Positions 9,716 to 21,201 of a stretch of 21,724 bases of DNA are shown here, piece by piece; the stretch's first letter is position 1, and every line of letters starts with the position of its first letter. The position numbers were made by a program, and so were the translations under genes. This DNA is from a virus, in UHGV virus genome UHGV-0132790; one strand, 5' to 3'. Under the pieces are notes generated by a model, which saw only the letters and a list, made by a program, of their open reading frames with translations, searched no databases and was not told the DNA's origin.

Positions 9716-10804
9716 ATGCGTAATTACGCAACAATTTCACCTCAGTTCTGGTTAGGCGAAACAGGGAGAAAACTAAGGAAGTCTGGTCCGGAATGTATGG
9801 TAGTGGCGTTGTATATGATGACCTCGCCTCATTCCAATATGCTGGGCCTTTATTACCTGCCTGTTTTGTACATTGCTCACGAAACCGGACTTGATCCTGA
9901 AGGGGCTTCTAAGGGGCTTCAAATGGCTTGCGAGGCTGGTTTTTGCAGCTATGACCATGATTCTGAGGTTGTATGGGTGCATGAAATGGCAGCATGGCAG
10001 GTTGGTGAATCGCTGAAACCTGGCGATAACCGTTGTGCTGGGGTAAGAAATGAATATTCCGTGTTGCTGGAAAATCCTTTTTTATCATCCTTTTATGATA
10101 GATATAAGGATGATTTCCACCTGGATGTCAGACGTGAATCATGTCGGAAAATTGAAGCCCCTTCAGAGCCTCTTTCAAGCCAAGAACAGGAACAGGAACA
10201 GGAACAAGAACAGGAAAGGGATAAAACCCTTCTGGTCCATGGCGAAAAAATCGCCACGGACCCGCAGGGGGATTTTTGTCCTGTTCTGACTGAACGTCCA
10301 GGACCAGCTGGCACGACACCGGAAGCAGATTCCGGGCGTTGTGTGCAGCAGGTGCTGATCGTCGAACCGGAGCAACAACGCCAACCGCAGCAGCCTGAAG
10401 CCGATTCCGCGATGAGCGGGAAGCCGATTGGGTTAACCCGGGCGATGCCGGGACCGTCTGCGGGACGAGTTGATTATCCTGACGTGTTCGAACGGGTCTG
10501 GCGTGAATATCCGCATCGGGCAGGGTCAAACCCGAAGAAATCCGCGTTCAATGCCTGGAGGGCCAGATTACGCGAAGGGGTGTCACCGGATGTCGTGCTG
10601 GATGGCGTGAGGCGTTACGCAAGATACCTGGAGGCTACCGGGAAAGCGGGAACTGAATTTGTTCAGCAGGCATCGACGTTTTTTGGCCCGAACAGGAATT
10701 TCGAAAATCCGTGGTCGCTGCCGAAGGCTGGCGCAGTCAGCCTGCGTTGCGTGAATCACATTTCTGAACCGGACACCGAAATTCCGCCGGGTTTCAGGGG
10801 GTAA
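9716..10804 (+). CDS. Phage replication initiation protein (O-equivalent, paired with a DnaC-type loader)
   Basis: 362-aa ORF directly upstream of the DnaC-like gene, occupying the lambda O position, with an internal copy of the upstream repeat. Contains an EQEQEQEQEQE tract. Family assignment is by position and general resemblance only. Confidence 0.7.
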   Translation: MRNYATISPQFWLGETGRKLRKSGPECMVVALYMMTSPHSNMLGLYYLPVLYIAHETGLDPEGASKGLQMACEAGFCSYDHDSEVVWVHEMAAWQVGESLKPGDNRCAGVRNEYSVLLENPFLSSFYDRYKDDFHLDVRRESCRKIEAPSEPLSSQEQEQEQEQEQERDKTLLVHGEKIATDPQGDFCPVLTERPGPAGTTPEADSGRCVQQVLIVEPEQQRQPQQPEADSAMSGKPIGLTRAMPGPSAGRVDYPDVFERVWREYPHRAGSNPKKSAFNAWRARLREGVSPDVVLDGVRRYARYLEATGKAGTEFVQQASTFFGPNRNFENPWSLPKAGAVSLRCVNHISEPDTEIPPGFRG

Positions 10805-13745: not shown

Positions 13746-13792
13746 TTGATATTTCTCTGGGGTAAAGCGCCGCCAGAATGACGGCGCGGTGG

Positions 13793-14098
13793 TTAAGCAT
13801 GAGGCGAAATTTCTGCCGGGCGGTATTTTGTTGAGAGATGAGATACGTCAACTTCTCTTTCCGCTTTTTCGAGGCTCCATGCCGTCTGGAGACGAATCCA
13901 TGAAGACGGAGTTCCACCCAGGACAGCAGCGAGACGAACAGCCATTTCAGGAGATATTGTCGCATTACCTGAAACCAGTCGCTGAACAGTGGAAGGCGCG
14001 ACATCAAGCGCTCTTGCCAGTTCCCTGATTCCAATATTCTGATCTTCCAGAATATCAGCAATAATTTCTCCGGGATGAGGGGGGTTAAACATCGCCAT
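13793..14098 (-). CDS. higA: HigA-type antitoxin (XRE-family HTH)
   Basis: 101-aa MAMFNPPHPGEIIADILEDQNIGIRELARALDVAPSTVQRLVSGNATISPEMAVRLAAVLGGTPSSWIRLQTAW... is typical of HigA/VapI antidote proteins. Lies downstream of the toxin with a 1-nt TAATG overlap. Confidence 0.8.
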   Translation of the reverse strand: MAMFNPPHPGEIIADILEDQNIGIRELARALDVAPSTVQRLVSGNATISPEMAVRLAAVLGGTPSSWIRLQTAWSLEKAEREVDVSHLSTKYRPAEISPHA

Positions 14099-14376
14099 TA
14101 GTGGTAATCCTCGTAGTTAAGAATATAAGCATCGCCGTTCCGAAACTCGAATGTGATTCTCCAGTTACCGGAGACGGTGACAGACCATGTATCGGATCTG
14201 TCCCCCTGCAACTGGTGCAGCCTGTACCCGGCAAGGTTAATATCATCAATGATTTCAGCTTGATCTATTACCTGAAGGCGCGTTCTCAGGCGTTTAACGT
14301 GATTGGGATTTATGCCTGATGCATTTCCTGTTTCAAAGAAACGTTGAAGTCCTTTGTGTTTCCAGCTTTTTATCAT
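14098..14376 (-). CDS. higB: HigB-type toxin (RelE/ParE superfamily)
   Basis: 92-aa MIKSWKHKGLQRFFETGNASGINPNHVKRLRTRLQVIDQAEIIDDINLAGYRLHQLQGDRSDTWSVTVSGNWRITFEFRNGDAYILNYEDYH. ATG at 14376 with AGGAAA upstream. Toxin-first gene order is characteristic of higBA. Confidence 0.8.
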   Translation of the reverse strand: MIKSWKHKGLQRFFETGNASGINPNHVKRLRTRLQVIDQAEIIDDINLAGYRLHQLQGDRSDTWSVTVSGNWRITFEFRNGDAYILNYEDYH

Positions 14377-14713
14377 GCTTGTTTCCTGTTGCGTTACGCG
14401 AATCATTATAGCGACTGTTGTGTAATGCGCAACGGTTGTTTGACAAAAATAGGTATCCGGGATTATATTCACCGCACGCCAGCAAAATCTGGCGTCGGGA
14501 TTGGCGTCCTGGATAGAGACCGCGACAGATACACGCCGCGAGCGTGTTTTTTATTGTCGTATGCACGCGCACATCTGAATTATGGTGGGCTGTGTGGGGG
14601 CGGAGAGATCCGCGCCGGTCGGTTTCCCGGTTACGCCAACCCTGCACAGTTCACCACCAGACGATTGGCGTCGTCGGTGGTGAGTTATTAAGAAACCACT
14701 CGAGGGCGTCATT

Positions 14714-15406
14714 ATGACAACTCAAATCTCTGTTGAAACTCTCTCCCCGATCACCCATAACCAGATTCCTGTTATTACCACCGAACTTTTGGCGCAGTTG
14801 TACGGTGCTGAAGTTAAGAACATTCAAAATAACTACGCCAGAAATGCTGAGCGCTTTATTGAAGGAAAGCATTTTTTCAAAGTGGCTGGCGATGCCCTGA
14901 AAAATTTGCGGGTAGCTTTAAACTACTCACAAAATTTGCAACCATCTTTAAGAGGGTTACAAATTTCCCCGAAAGCCCGCTCCCTCATCCTCTGGACAGA
15001 ACGAGGCGCAGCCCGTCACGCCAAAATGCTAGAAACCGATCAGGCGTGGGAAGTGTTCGAAAAACTGGAAGACTGCTATTTCAGCCAGGGAAAAACAGCA
15101 CCAACCGAACAGCAGCCGCAGATTCAGCCACAATTCACAGCCGAGGAAATCATCCTCCTTTGCTACATGCAACTCTGGATGGAAAAAGCCCAGGACCTTA
15201 GCAAGCAGCTGTACCCCATAATGAAAGAGCTGAACTCCTCATACACGAACAAGCTGTATGACATTGCGTTTGAGACTATCTACATGGTGACGAAGAACAG
15301 AGACGCGCTACTAAGGGAGGTAACACGTCTCGACATGTCAAGTTCCGTTATCCAGCGGGCCATGCCAATGCTGAAAAGCCTGCGGGCAAGACAATTTGAA
15401 TTCTGA
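14714..15406 (+). CDS. ORF6N-domain phage protein (Roi or antirepressor-like DNA-binding protein)
   Basis: N-terminal VITTELLAQLYGAEVKNIQNNYARNAERFIEGKHFFKV resembles the ORF6N domain consensus. 230 aa. Confidence 0.6.
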   Translation: MTTQISVETLSPITHNQIPVITTELLAQLYGAEVKNIQNNYARNAERFIEGKHFFKVAGDALKNLRVALNYSQNLQPSLRGLQISPKARSLILWTERGAARHAKMLETDQAWEVFEKLEDCYFSQGKTAPTEQQPQIQPQFTAEEIILLCYMQLWMEKAQDLSKQLYPIMKELNSSYTNKLYDIAFETIYMVTKNRDALLREVTRLDMSSSVIQRAMPMLKSLRARQFEF

Positions 15407-16732: not shown

Positions 16733-16929
16733 ACGCCACAATTCAAACAATACCGGAATTGCTTATCCAGGCACGAGGCAATATGACTGAAGTTTCACGA
16801 AAACTGAACTGTAATCGTGCTACGGTCAGAAAATATGTCGGTGATAAAGAAGGCAAACGGCACGCCGTCGTCAACGGTGTCCTTATGGTTCACCGTGGAT
16901 GGGATAAGGGGAAAGCTACTGATGCGTGA
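16729..16929 (+). CDS. ninH: NinH-like small DNA-binding protein
   Basis: 66-aa ...TIPELLIQARGNMTEVSRKLNCNRATVRKYVGDKEGKRHAVVNGVLMVHRGW matches lambda NinH (TIPDMLVEAYGNQTEVARRLKCSRGTVRKYVDDKDGKMHAIVNDVLMVHRGW). Confidence 0.8.
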   Translation: MNATIQTIPELLIQARGNMTEVSRKLNCNRATVRKYVGDKEGKRHAVVNGVLMVHRGWDKGKATDA

Positions 16930-17164
16930 TATTCAGCAGGTGCCTGAACGCATGGCTTTATTCAGGTCGTCTGGAAAAGCGCATGAGCAGCGTAATAGCG
17001 GAGTTCATGGCGAAGAGTATATGAACAGATTATTTGAATGCTATATGAGACTGAAGCACGGAGATCGCTATGACCTGACACGTGATGCTGACGGTTTCTA
17101 CTGCCGTGAAGTTGTGAAACGAATGTTTGAAGTGTGGTGTCATTGTAAAGGATGGGGGCTGTGA
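16922..17164 (+). CDS. Hypothetical protein (80 aa)
   Basis: ATG at 16922 overlaps the ninH stop. Its stop overlaps the start of the next gene (TGATG). Confidence 0.4.
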   Translation: MRDIQQVPERMALFRSSGKAHEQRNSGVHGEEYMNRLFECYMRLKHGDRYDLTRDADGFYCREVVKRMFEVWCHCKGWGL

Positions 17165-17778
17165 TGCGGCTAACCCCAGTATTCGGCATGGTTAACTTTA
17201 TTAATGATGCTCATTTCCGCCGCATATGGAGGCATCCGAAGAAAATCATTAACTCTCGTCAGAAAGCATGGGTTCACTACATGCTACAGGTATGGGGAAA
17301 TGTTAACGCTGGTGATGATTCTCCTTGTGGTGCAATTAACGTTATTGGGCGACTGATGATTCGCAGTCAGTGGAGCGATGACAAAGCTAAGCAGATTGAG
17401 TCTGTTGTCATGCGTCTGTATGAAGAAGACGGACTACGTGGAGATGAACTCCATCAGAAAGCCCGAGAACTGGTCATCCCTCAGTCATCGGCAGGTAATA
17501 TCATTGCTCTCGCCAAAGAATCCGATGATGCTGCTTTCGTTGAACGTGTGATGGTTGAGACCTTTCATCGTGAAAGCCCTGTCCGTGATGTAGCTATTAG
17601 GCGATATTGCAATCGCGACAGCACGCAAGATATCGCCAGGATGATTTCTCAGATAACAGGAGTTGATATTCAGTATTGCCGGAGGCGGGTCGTGTGGTGC
17701 GAGAGGGTCCTTGATTCAGAAATGTTTTATGCAATGAAGCGAGAATTGGAGAAAGAACTTCTAGTGATTGCTGGATGA
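17164..17778 (+). CDS. Putative late antiterminator (Q-like), assigned by position only
   Basis: 204-aa ORF, last gene of the nin cluster, followed by a promoter/terminator unit. The order ninB-ninE-ybcO-rusA-small ORF-Q mirrors DLP12 (ybcN-ninE-ybcO-rusA-ylcG-quuD). Contains CRRRVVWC. Not lambda-Q-like in sequence. Confidence 0.45.
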   Translation: MRLTPVFGMVNFINDAHFRRIWRHPKKIINSRQKAWVHYMLQVWGNVNAGDDSPCGAINVIGRLMIRSQWSDDKAKQIESVVMRLYEEDGLRGDELHQKARELVIPQSSAGNIIALAKESDDAAFVERVMVETFHRESPVRDVAIRRYCNRDSTQDIARMISQITGVDIQYCRRRVVWCERVLDSEMFYAMKRELEKELLVIAG

Positions 17779-17802
17779 TGCAAAATATTTTTTGTAAATG
17801 CG

Positions 17803-17970
17803 TTGCTTTCGAGAAATGAAAGTAGTATGTTTTGTGTATGCTCGGAGCAAAAGCGCACTGAGAAGCGAAAGAGAAATCCTGATTTACCTCGGTCGTCGAT
17901 AATATTTAGGATCGGCATACTGGCTAGATTAGGTAAAGGCCTCGGCAGAAATGTCGGGGCTTTTTGTTTG
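17803..17970 (+). promoter_or_regulatory. Candidate pR'/tR'-like unit: promoter plus intrinsic terminator, giving a short leader RNA of about 130 nt
   Basis: TTGCTT (17803-17808), 17-nt spacer, TATGTT (17826-17831). Terminator stem GCCTCGGCA-GAAA-TGTCGGGGC (17939-17960) followed by TTTTTGTTTG. Confidence 0.4.
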
Positions 17971-18042
17971 CACAACAGGTAAGAGCATTGAACCCGCAGA
18001 CCTCGTGGAATTGGTGAAAGGTGTGCGCAGTGCTCTTATCGT

Positions 18043-18169
18043 TGTGGTGAAGCTCAATGGCGAGCTAGCAGACAGGCGACTGTGAAAATACTAGTCATGT
18101 AGCGGATCGCCGCGCGTATTGTAATCGGCAGCGCACCGATGGGAGCTGGTTCGATTCCGGCCGCCACAA
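18043..18169 (+). other. tRNA-like remnant (T-arm and acceptor-like pairing, no canonical cloverleaf found)
   Basis: GCTGG-TTCGATT-CCGGC T-arm motif at 18145-18161. CGCCACA (18162-18168) can pair with TGTGGTG (18043-18049), but the 126-nt span is too long and I could not fold a D arm or anticodon arm. No encoded CCA. Confidence 0.25.
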
Positions 18170-18311
18170 TCCAAACTGAGCCGTAGCCTCTGGGTGTCCT
18201 GAATTCATCAGTGATAGTTACGCTGCGGCCTTCTACATACGATTTTTGTGAAAAGCGGGTGGCAAGAGGCTGCGAAATTTTTAAATACCTCACAATTCCA
18301 CAGCTTGATGA

Positions 18312-18510
18312 TTGTCTGGCTGCCGGAGAATTTGTTAAAAATTACATCGCGTGGTGAATCCCCCTCAGCGGCGGGGCATCTGGCAAAGTGTATGATCCAG
18401 CGAACATGCAAATTCAGTAGCCAGGCTGAATTTACCGGGAGGCACCTGGCACCATGCGACAGACAGAAATTAGGCTATACTTCAGCCCCTCTCCGGAGGG
18501 GCTTTTCTGT
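18312..18510 (+). ncRNA. Candidate small RNA or late-leader unit A (promoter to terminator)
   Basis: TTGTCT (18312-18317), 17 nt, TGtTAAAAA extended -10 (18333-18341). Perfect terminator AGCCCCTC-TCCG-GAGGGGCT (18484-18503) followed by TTTCTGT. No convincing ORF. Confidence 0.4.
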
Positions 18511-18687
18511 GCAGGATGTGTCACAGTTTCCTGAATTCTGAGTACTGTCCTGTTACTCAGGGTGCTATATTTTCTGACGTGATGAAAGTCTGCCGGAAGG
18601 CGGAACGTATCGGAAATGACCCAGTAGAGAAAACGTTGACTCAGATACCGATGCTGAGTTACCGGGAAACCGGCATCACATGACCGC

Positions 18688-18720
18688 TATCCTTCCAGGC
18701 TCGCTCCGGCGGGCCTTTTT
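18688..18720 (+). terminator. Possible intrinsic terminator (imperfect stem)
   Basis: AGGCTCGCTCCGGCGGGCC followed by TTTTT. Confidence 0.3.
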
Positions 18721-18780
18721 ACTGCAGAAAACAGTTTTCCCGTAAAATGCCACGTTACTCACAATTCAGGCTGGCGATTA

Positions 18781-18993
18781 TTGTCTGGCCAGCGGGAAGT
18801 TTGTTAAAAAAATATGGCATGGTGAATCCCCTGTGCGGAGGGGCATATCAGCGACAGGTGTTTGGTCACACCCCTTATCCTTTCTGGTGCGGGTTCAGGT
18901 GCTGATACTGAACTCACCGGGAGGCACCCGGCACCATGCATGAACGGTACATAGCGCTACTCTCCAGCCCCTCTCCGGAGGGGCTTTCTTGTT
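18781..18993 (+). ncRNA. Candidate small RNA or late-leader unit B (diverged paralogue of unit A)
   Basis: Same architecture as unit A: TTGTCT (18781-18786), TGtTAAAAA (18802-18810), identical terminator hairpin AGCCCCTCTCCGGAGGGGCT (18966-18985) followed by TTCTTGTT. Shared internal blocks GGTGAATCCCC and CACCGGGAGGCACC.GGCACCATGC. Confidence 0.4.
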
Positions 18994-19227
18994 GGATAAA
19001 AAAAAGCCCGCGCCGGGAAGCGCGGGTGGCAAGGAATAAACAACAAAACGTGAAGTGATCAATTTTCAGCTGGCGAATAATACCCGACAGTAATCACTCT
19101 GTGCAACTGTATGGTCTTTTTCGTATTGCGGGCTGTAGTCATCCTCCTGTTTCTGAACCCTTGTCCATGACTGACGTCAGCCCGCACCTTATCTTGATTG
19201 CATACACTATCCCTGCCGGGAGGAATA

Positions 19228-21201
19228 ATGGCATTTAAACACTATGACGTGGTCAGGGCATCATCGCCGTCAGACCTCGCAGGAAAACTGGCGCAAAAAC
19301 TGAAGGAAGGCTGGCAACCCTATGGTAGTCCGATTATCTCAAGCGCGGGTTATGGTGCTGAATTTATCCAGGCTATAGTCGCTGAAGGGGATATGACCTC
19401 TCCGGTAGTTTCACCGGGGGGAGATGGTACCCGGACTGTTGTTGTTGAACCAGAATATTACTTTGTCATTGCGCTGGCCGGACAGTCAAACGGCATGGCG
19501 TATGGTGAAGGCCTGCCGCTGCCGGAGACATATGACCGTCCGGACCCGCGTATTAAACAGCTGGCGCGTCGCAGTACGGTGACACCGGGTGGTGCGGCCT
19601 GTGCATATAACGACATCATTCCGGCGGACCACTGCCTGCATGATGTGCAGGATTTGAGCCGTTTTTCTCATCCGAAAGCCAGCGCAGAGCAGTATGGGTG
19701 TGTCGGACAGGGATTGCATATTGCCAAAAAGCTGTTGCCCTTTATGCCGGAAAATGCGGGTATTTTGTTAGTGCCGTGCTGTCGTGGTGGCTCTGCGTTT
19801 ACAGCCGGTGCTGACGGAACGTTCAGTGAAAGTTCAGGAGCGTCGGATAAATCTGAACGATGGGGCGTTGATAAGCCGTTGTATAAAGACCTGCTGACAC
19901 GCACTCAGGCCGCGCTGAAGGCAAACCCCAAAAACATACTGCTTTGTGTTGTCTGGATGCAGGGCGAGTTTGATTTAAAACAGGGAGCGTACGCCAGTCA
20001 GCCCGCCATGTTTGATGCCATGGTGGAAAAATACCGTTCTGACCTGGCGGGAGTATCCGGTCAGTGCGCTGGTGCTTCTCCTTCTCTGGTGCCCTGGATT
20101 TGTGGTGACACGACGTACTACTGGAAGGAGACGTATTCAGCGCAATACGATGCCGTCTATGGCGCATACAAAACCAAAGCCGGTAAAAATATCTTCTTTG
20201 TGCCGTTTATGATGGATGACAATGGTCAGAAAGTCGGGACCAATGAACCGTCAGAAGACCCGGATATTCCGGCTATCGGGTATTATGGTTCCGGTGGACG
20301 AACGGATGCGAAGAGCTGGACAACATCCGATCGTAAAACCCACTTTGGTTCATGGGCGCGTCGCGGAATTATTTCCGACCGTCTGGCAACAGCCATTCTT
20401 CTGCATGTGGGCAGAGTGGCAGATTTTGTTTCCGGGAAAGTGACAAAAGCCGCGGTTTCTTCAGGCGGAGGCGTATCGCAACCAGTACAGGAGAGTGGCG
20501 ATACTCAGCCTGAAGCCGTTGTCCCGACAAAGATACAGTCAGTGCTGGCTTATGATGTGAATGCGGAAAATGCCGCTCTGGCTTCGCAGGGCTGGACGCT
20601 GACAGATGTCAAAAACACGCTGGTCAGTGACAGTGGTTCAGGTAAAAAAGCCCTTCGTCTTGAAAAACCAGAAAATGGTCTTGCACAGAAAAAGACCTGG
20701 AAAGTATCGCACGCAATTGATGCCGGTAAGGGGAAGGAGCTGTTCGATAACGGCGGTGAAATCACGCTGCGCTTTAAAATCCCCGATGATGTATCTCTCA
20801 ATGCTTCTGCAAATCAATATTCTGCGGGTATTTACTGGCGCGGTAGTGGATGGCCGGGAGCGGAATCAGAGGAGGGTTATATTGCGGCCTTCTATCTGCA
20901 GACTGATAAAACAAACATCAATGTGATGTATCATGCAAACACCACATCACAGCGGCTTGGTAGTTATGGTCCGTTCGATCACGACTGGCACACGCTGACT
21001 TTCCGCTTCCCGGGTGGTGGCTCGCTGAACGTCACGCCGGTGCTTGATAATGCAGCAGGAAAACCGTTTACGCTGACCAGATGGACGAATGCAGCCTTTG
21101 AGGCCAACGCGCTGGCAATTACGGATATTACCGGAAATGCGGCAACTTACCCTGTGCTGATTGAAAGTCTTACTGTTGGTGTGAATGCCGTAGCAGCATA
21201 A
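19228..21201 (+). CDS. nanS-p: NanS-p-like sialate O-acetylesterase (SGNH/SASA hydrolase domain plus C-terminal domain), as found downstream of stx in Stx phages
   Basis: 658-aa protein from the ATG at 19228 (MAFKHYDVV...) with GGGAGG upstream. The GQSN SGNH-hydrolase motif in FVIALAGQSNGMAYGEG and the overall size and architecture fit the prophage NanS-p family. Confidence 0.8.
   Translation: MAFKHYDVVRASSPSDLAGKLAQKLKEGWQPYGSPIISSAGYGAEFIQAIVAEGDMTSPVVSPGGDGTRTVVVEPEYYFVIALAGQSNGMAYGEGLPLPETYDRPDPRIKQLARRSTVTPGGAACAYNDIIPADHCLHDVQDLSRFSHPKASAEQYGCVGQGLHIAKKLLPFMPENAGILLVPCCRGGSAFTAGADGTFSESSGASDKSERWGVDKPLYKDLLTRTQAALKANPKNILLCVVWMQGEFDLKQGAYASQPAMFDAMVEKYRSDLAGVSGQCAGASPSLVPWICGDTTYYWKETYSAQYDAVYGAYKTKAGKNIFFVPFMMDDNGQKVGTNEPSEDPDIPAIGYYGSGGRTDAKSWTTSDRKTHFGSWARRGIISDRLATAILLHVGRVADFVSGKVTKAAVSSGGGVSQPVQESGDTQPEAVVPTKIQSVLAYDVNAENAALASQGWTLTDVKNTLVSDSGSGKKALRLEKPENGLAQKKTWKVSHAIDAGKGKELFDNGGEITLRFKIPDDVSLNASANQYSAGIYWRGSGWPGAESEEGYIAAFYLQTDKTNINVMYHANTTSQRLGSYGPFDHDWHTLTFRFPGGGSLNVTPVLDNAAGKPFTLTRWTNAAFEANALAITDITGNAATYPVLIESLTVGVNAVAA

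Follow-up and report, generated by a model that had tools for sequence, protein, structure and literature searches.

A Q-like gene and nanS-p flank candidate small RNA genes, without stx, in a lambdoid phage of the PhiR5_2 type

The virus genome UHGV-0132790 carries, in its late region, a gene for a Q-like late-gene antiterminator and a gene for the sialate O-acetylesterase NanS-p, and the locus raises the question of whether such a neighbourhood is the footprint of a lost Shiga toxin (Stx) operon. An initial sequence-only reading had treated nanS-p as a marker of the stx locus and had proposed that the prophage is a stx-negative relative or derivative of a Stx-converting phage. The window analysed here is a 21,724-nt stretch of UHGV-0132790, and all coordinates are positions in it. 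The gene order is Q-like gene, a 1449-bp interval (17779-19227), esterase gene, DUF1378, DUF826, holin and lysozyme, which places the esterase in the late region of a lambdoid prophage, 5′ of the lysis cassette. With a probability of roughly 0.85, the locus represents the region for late regulation and morons in a functional lambdoid phage that lacks stx and belongs to a Stx-phage-like, short-tailed lineage (the PhiR5_2 type); it would carry an antiterminator, a cargo of small RNA (sRNA) genes and a virion NanS-p.

Over 17152 to 21201, interval included, the window shares 99.6-99.7% identity with Escherichia phage PhiR5_2 (PV340546), which has a 61.5-kb genome and, according to its record, E. 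coli K-12 MG1655 as host. Prophages with a matching interval (99.4-99.9% identity, e.g., NZ_AP045180) are found in 17 of 5426 complete E. coli genomes. These prophages and PhiR5_2 share with the window the gene order from NinB to the lysis genes, and there is essentially no difference between them and the window. In their records the Q-like gene is a 'hypothetical protein' and the interval has no annotated RNA. No stx annotation is present in the examined parts of the PhiR5_2 record, and a literature search for PhiR5/PhiR12 phages gave no relevant paper. In its terminase-portal-head block, PhiR5_2 shares 90-95% identity with 187 phage records, mostly Stx-converting; because this block lies outside the window, the 933W/Sp5-type head module is assigned to the present phage through the 99.6%-identical PhiR5_2. 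The proposal of a stx-negative relative is in keeping with this result.

As had been stated from the sequence, the Q-like gene and nanS-p are separated only by non-coding units, and neither stxA nor stxB lies between them. A tblastn search of the whole window with Stx2A and Stx2B of phage 933W gave a best E-value of 4.4 (Stx1 proteins were not searched separately), and no open reading frame (ORF) in the interval has similarity to stx; the stxA and stxB genes that lie between Q and the lysis genes in a Stx-converting phage are thus absent. In 933W (Stx2a), the order is Q, pR′/tR′, three tRNA genes, stxA2B2, STnc100 (207.7 bits, starting 75 nt past stxB), AsxR on the minus strand, and nanS-p. 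In the Stx1c phage phiSTEC1589-Stx1c it is Q, stxA1B1, two tandem STnc100 copies as in the window, a minus-strand hairpin unit like that of the window, and nanS-p. Both orders make the window co-linear with these phages minus stxAB, the common plan being Q, pR′/tR′, tRNA genes in some, one or more STnc100 copies, a minus-strand sRNA, nanS-p and lysis. By position, the empty stxAB slot would fall at about 18275-18285, between a tRNA-like segment and the first STnc100 module. The suggestion that the interval is an acceptor site for toxin cargo is correct inasmuch as this is the position of stx in 933W and the Stx1c phage, but it is the moron site downstream of pR′ that has already been published (PMC4104026).

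The resemblance to the two Stx phages is confined to certain parts of the locus. The nanS-p leader is 77-82% identical between them and the window, and the NanS-p proteins share 58% identity. The Q protein of 933W is unrelated in sequence to that of the window, which has its own pR′/tR′ and no stxAB; where 933W has ileZ-argN-argO, the window has a tRNA-like pseudogene, and AsxR of 933W shares its promoter, but not its body, with the minus-strand sRNA of the window. Nothing in the window corresponds to the sequence that lies upstream of stx in 933W or in the Stx1c phage, and no stx scar is found in it; a global MAFFT alignment with the Stx1c phage becomes informative only once the second STnc100 copy is reached.

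The product of the esterase gene is a NanS-p homologue, as had been proposed, but its length is 657 rather than 667 amino acids. ATG 19228 is the likely start because it stands four bases past GGGAGGA (19218-19224), agrees with the RefSeq call, and is followed by a DUF1737 match from residue 3; the 667-amino-acid alternative from TTG 19198 is less likely. The protein, named 'SASA family carbohydrate esterase' in RefSeq, contains the Pfam domains DUF1737 (residues 3-53), SASA (83-274) and DUF6645 (508-618), all above their cut-offs. It matches the NanS/YjhS structure 3pt5 over residues 71-391 (E = 3e-118) and the NanS-p C-terminal domain structure 6yp6 (E = 3e-43), and the 58% identity to the characterized 933W enzyme extends over its full length. 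In the alignment with 3pt5, AGQSNgMAYGEG is paired with AGQSNaMAYGEG and THF with SHF, so that the catalytic serine (of GQSN) and the histidine towards the end of the esterase domain are both retained; these presumably correspond to the NanS dyad Ser19/His301. The catalytic domain would, by this likeness, remove 9-O-acetyl groups from sialic acids.

The esterase gene is a poor marker of stx, and its place next to stxAB is a special case. DNA similar to nanS (DUF1737 plus the catalytic part) was counted at 9795 places, up to 18 of them in one genome, across 2507 of the 5426 complete E. coli genomes, whereas stxAB-like DNA was counted at 1103 places in 759 genomes. The resulting ratio of about 9:1 is an upper bound, since the nanS-like count includes chromosomal nanS and fragments, but the imbalance is still large, and no toxin ancestry is needed for the layout seen here. 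NanS-p in phages without stx has been reported before; functional nanS-p alleles number seven in EDL933 and five in O104:H4, spread over both Stx and non-Stx prophages (PMC8065619, PMC10462455). In stx2a strains, nanS-p rises under inducing conditions as measured by quantitative PCR (PMC10462455). A cryo-electron microscopy preprint further describes gp84, the NanS-p homologue of phi24B, as decorating the capsid via DUF1737 (bioRxiv 10.64898/2026.04.10.717836). Such a role would explain why nanS-p travels with the head type and not with the toxin.

The designation of the 204-amino-acid protein upstream as Q-like is accepted as a well-supported inference from its profile match, predicted fold, synteny and the conserved block downstream of its gene. 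It matches PHROG 753, 'anti-termination protein Q-like', with an E-value of 3e-68. By sequence it does not fall within the curated Q families (Q-lambda PF03589, Q82 PF06530 and Q21): weak PF06530 matches occur in just 5 of 39 homologues (best E = 0.032), and matches of the protein to ERp29 (E of about 1e-3) were judged spurious. An AlphaFold model built from the alignment of 39 homologues has a mean predicted local distance difference test score of 79, and when it was compared with the PDB by Foldseek, all top matches were Q21 chains, with a probability of about 1.0 and a target-normalized template modelling score of 0.61-0.67. The model thus has a Q21-type fold, and the protein is a candidate Q21-fold antiterminator. 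Q21 of phage 21 (PDB 6jnx, 6p18-6p1c) differs from it, being 162 amino acids long and about 14% identical in sequence.

A database search found 214 homologues of the Q-like protein at E ≤ 0.001, and the 120 listed are from Enterobacterales and nearly all labelled 'hypothetical protein'. In Serratia, Klebsiella and E. coli, the gene is always the last of the nin region, with about 500-680 bp of gene-free DNA between it and the lysis cassette. The examined Serratia, Klebsiella and other E. coli prophages with this Q type have the holin gene directly after the gap, and lack the STnc100 modules, nanS-p, DUF1378 and DUF826. This set, missing from the other carriers examined, thus forms a module that can be separated from this Q type and was joined to it in the PhiR5_2 lineage.

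Directly downstream of the Q-like gene lie a late promoter-like sequence, a candidate pause element and a candidate terminator, with the lysis genes further on, as is expected of a Q locus. Among Q-like homologues from Serratia, Klebsiella and E. coli, with protein identities of 53-87%, the promoter-like block 3′ of the gene is conserved; TATGCTCGG at 17837-17845 is invariant in the DNA downstream of five aligned Q-like genes. The terminator hairpin and its T-run persist in each of the five loci, where compensatory changes preserve the pairing of the stem. Lambdoid late promoters such as lambda pR′ carry a sigma-dependent pause signal at about +1. By analogy with lambda pR′, the block may be assigned as pR′, and TATGCT at 17837-17842, at about +1, is a candidate pause element of this kind; GAAATGAAAGT and TATGCTCGG are candidates for the Q-binding element and pause signal of an uncharacterized Q type. 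Compared with Q21, the conserved element here sits in the spacer between -35 and -10, a placement that may resemble the position of the Q-binding element in lambda.

The interval contains 11 terminator-like sites compared with 1.6 expected, and the promoter and terminator units that had been noticed in it are real, non-random and can now be identified as putative sRNA genes (Table 1). Two of them score above the Rfam cut-off of 47 bits for RF02076, the STnc100 family, over model positions 1-206; PasD is related to STnc100 (Zhu, Shabalina, Storz; bioRxiv 10.64898/2026.05.13.724894). The two full copies share 61% identity with each other, and a degenerate copy between them is about 50% identical to both. 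Copy 1 is 95% identical to copy 1 of the non-Stx phage vB_EcoS-640R1, and copy 2 is 85% identical to copy 2 of that phage and 77% identical to copy A of the Stx1c phage. Copy 2 takes the position that in 933W belongs to the STnc100 behind stxB. Given that the copies are closer to their counterparts in other phages (85-95%) than to each other, the tandem pair is old rather than a fresh duplication.

On the opposite strand, a short candidate unit with its own promoter and strong terminator converges on the second copy ahead of the esterase ORF, the position typical of AsxR/AgvB. Its fold has a z-score of -2.2 and its 5′ part is rich in G and U (CACGUUUUGUUGUUUAUUCC). Across 56 phage records, among them those of Stx2a phages and VT1-Sakai, conservation of the unit is 87-90%, and its promoter aligns with that of 933W AsxR while the transcribed body is different. 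A 281-nt search with the Rfam AsxR and AgvB models (RF02703 and RF02702, defined by a conserved 3′ region of about 42 nt) gave no match even with E-values as high as 10 admitted, against a score of 88.1 bits for 933W; membership in these families was accordingly rejected, position and promoter being all that is held in common.

Table 1. Features of the late region in the window, with the evidence for each
Feature	Position	Strand	Evidence and details
Q-like late-gene antiterminator gene (putative), last nin-region gene	17164..17778	+	204 amino acids; RefSeq start in identical prophage is 17164
Candidate pR′	17803..17842	+	-35 TTGCTT 17803-17808; 17-nt spacer with GAAATGAAAGT; -10 TATGTT 17826-17831; -10-like TATGCT 17837-17842
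Candidate tR′ intrinsic terminator	17939..17969	+	8-bp hairpin 17939-17946/17953-17960, then TTTTTGTTT
tRNA-like element, probable pseudogene	18043..18169	+	Rfam tRNA 26.5 bits, cut-off 29, E = 0.0024 in 542-nt search
STnc100/PasD-family sRNA copy 1	18319..18512	+	Rfam RF02076 139.9 bits; own terminator 18484-18503
Degenerate STnc100-like copy	18548..18723	+	RF02076 30 bits, E = 9e-4; intact terminator 18697-18716
STnc100/PasD-family sRNA copy 2	18788..18996	+	RF02076 129.8 bits; terminator 18966-18985
Convergent short sRNA unit (candidate)	18998..19105	-	About 70-nt transcript from ~19071; promoter TGCACA-17 nt-TATTAT 19105..19077; terminator stem 19026-19007, T-run to 18998
nanS-p, three-domain sialate O-acetylesterase (DUF1737 capsid-binding, SASA/NanS catalytic, C-terminal lectin-like)	19228..21201	+	657 amino acids from ATG

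Convergent sRNA pairs are known from the moron site of lambdoid prophages, as EcOnc27-AsxR and the AgvB class (Tree et al. 2014, PMC4104026), in which a structured plus-strand sRNA of about 200 nt is set against a short minus-strand sRNA between pR′ and a conserved esterase ORF, as in the window. The order Q, pasD/STnc100, esterase and holin has also been described for stx-free prophages (bioRxiv 10.64898/2026.05.13.724894). The published pairs and the pasD-esterase synteny feature one STnc100 module, whereas the window has 2.5 in tandem and a short sRNA outside the AsxR/AgvB Rfam families. Members of the STnc100 family are Hfq-bound or have been seen as RNA in enterohaemorrhagic E. coli (EHEC) and in E. 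coli that produce Shiga toxin (STEC) (PMC4104026, PMC12370729). A tentative and rather doubtful extension is that the moron slot is filled by an sRNA payload, two long-diverged STnc100/PasD paralogues and a convergent sRNA, that serves as lysogenic-conversion cargo and rewires host Hfq networks in commensal and extraintestinal E. coli, much like the action of AgvB and AsxR in EHEC.

The locus could in principle derive from a Stx phage that recently lost stxAB by deletion or recombination and left the flanks in place. Co-linearity with 933W and the Stx1c phage and the similarity of the head module to those of Stx phages agree with such an origin, and repeated loss of stx has been raised as one explanation for esterase/sRNA loci without stx (Zhu et al., bioRxiv 10.64898/2026.05.13.724894). 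However, no remnant of stx is detectable at the protein level, the regions upstream of stx in both phages are dissimilar to the window, and the Q type, pR′ and tR′ all differ. The interval itself is a mosaic of which most is related to phages without the toxin: the segment 17961-18274 shares 92.7% identity with the non-Stx phage HK75, the similarity setting in just past the annotated Tr′ of HK75, and 18274-18985 is 93.8% identical to the non-Stx vB_EcoS-640R1 group. The final 320-470 bp or so (from about 18758-18910 to 19227) is the sole part common to Stx phages, at 82-88% identity, and is present in stx-free phages too. With the excess of nanS-like loci over stx added to this, recent deletion is very unlikely. 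The interval aligns throughout to non-Stx lambdoid phages, end to end with PhiR5_2 (99.6%) and piecewise with HK75 and vB_EcoS-640R1, the very result by which the sequence-only reading was to be judged wrong, and that reading is refuted in its specific, toxin-linked form.

Other doubts concern the regulatory parts of the locus, and several observations weigh against reading them as an active antiterminator, sRNA genes and a virion esterase. The Q-like protein matches no Pfam or NCBIfam family; phmmer against the PDB was of no help either, and a profile finds Q21 there at a best E-value of only 0.76. Candidate pR′ was missed by a consensus scan because its -35 has only three of the six consensus bases. 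The third STnc100-like copy is below the family threshold, the convergent sRNA matches no Rfam family, and the capsid-decoration role is drawn by analogy from a single preprint on phi24B gp84. If antitermination were not the function of the 204-amino-acid protein, other promoters would have to drive nanS-p and the lysis genes, and the downstream block would be an ordinary promoter with an attenuator; given the PHROG match, the Q21-like fold and the conservation of the block and its synteny across genera, this is highly improbable. It is likewise unlikely, if less strikingly so, that the STnc100-like and antisense units are remnants in decay, with no function beyond, at most, that of terminators. 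One copy is plainly degenerate, published work has yet to settle what STnc100 does (PMC12370729), and expression and function of these RNAs in the present phage are something we infer from sequence. The two full copies nevertheless score about three times the Rfam cut-off with all helices retained, and the higher identity between phages than between copies fits the long maintenance of two variants. The promoter of the antisense unit is also conserved across divergent phages, and the family members found as RNA or bound to Hfq in EHEC and STEC speak against decay as well.

If the window is the late region of a stx-free phage with an active Q-like protein, the following course of events would best fit the evidence, each step being conjectural. 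On induction, the Q21-fold protein encoded by the last nin gene would load onto RNA polymerase at the adjacent pR′, and the modified polymerase would pass tR′ and the three terminators of STnc100 type to transcribe nanS-p and the genes for lysis and morphogenesis. The place taken by stxAB in Stx phages is empty, and the cargo of the spacer would consist of regulatory RNA, namely two divergent STnc100/PasD sRNA genes, a third copy that has decayed, and a convergent sRNA that by position belongs with AsxR/AgvB. A lysogen would probably make the STnc100-type and convergent RNAs as separate sRNAs, like their EHEC counterparts (PMC4104026, PMC12370729). NanS-p would go with the head module and not with the toxin, DUF1737 serving as the capsid-decoration domain of this virion type while the catalytic domain deacetylates sialic acids.

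The feature is real but ordinary. A near-identical phage is public, and the architecture, the sRNA family, the moron site and NanS-p phages free of stx have all been published. The current understanding of Stx phages is unchanged. What is new is small: an unannotated Q family that can be assigned, from a predicted structure, to the Q21 fold, together with its conserved block of promoter, pause and terminator, and a toxin slot flanked by 2.5 tandem, long-diverged STnc100 modules and an uncharacterized convergent sRNA. For annotation, a nanS-p gene beside a Q gene should not be taken as a Shiga toxin footprint; the esterase appears to belong to the virion/late module of a large phage lineage whose prophage copies are mostly toxin-free. 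The 1.4-kb spacer, blank in RefSeq and in the phage record yet dense with sRNA genes and control elements, merits annotation. The Q-like family, widespread in Enterobacterales prophages as 'hypothetical protein', could be named a Q21-fold antiterminator candidate.

The tRNA-like remnant noticed earlier in the interval is present, with a score below the Rfam threshold. Its acceptor, D and T arms are intact, and a 74-nt insert replaces the anticodon arm. ARAGORN found no tRNA over the whole window, the element being recovered only by a narrow, permissive Rfam search, and it folds with no more stability than shuffled sequence does (z = -0.27). It lies within the HK75-like segment, at the position of the tRNA genes of 933W and vB_EcoS-640R1, and is a disrupted tRNA or a conserved tRNA-like RNA, probably a pseudogene. 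The tRNA-like segment is about 92% conserved in HK75 and, by match coordinates, in several Salmonella phage records, just past tR′.

Some minor observations concern the STnc100 modules. The terminator of the degenerate copy (18695-18720) has a 26-bp, 88% match to the terminator just 5′ of stxA2 in 933W (L005 2383-2408), which may reflect chance or convergence. The notion that STnc100 modules bracket stx as recombination arms was considered and is unsupported: the site in 933W scores only 18.9 bits (E = 0.1), and the Stx1c phage has none 5′ of stx.

Upstream of the locus, an 80-amino-acid ORF (16922-17164, plus strand) at the junction of ninH and the Q-like gene overlaps the start of the latter; it matches PHROG 17609, of unknown function, with an E-value of 1.6e-60 and belongs to no Pfam or NCBIfam family. 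On the plus strand at 14463-14661, 5′ of the ORF at 14714-15406, there are matches at the Rfam gathering level to c4-a1b1 (47.1 bits), isrK (74.7 bits) and C4 antisense RNA (66.7 bits). These stand directly upstream of a gene for an antirepressor with an ORF6N domain, an arrangement that looks like an RNA-controlled antirepressor module of the P1/P7 C4 type or the Gifsy IsrK style. A toxin-antitoxin pair of the HigB/HigA type (RelE/ParE family) lies at about 13790-14375 on the minus strand (L004 1015-1598), with the replication region on one side and the antirepressor and nin genes on the other.

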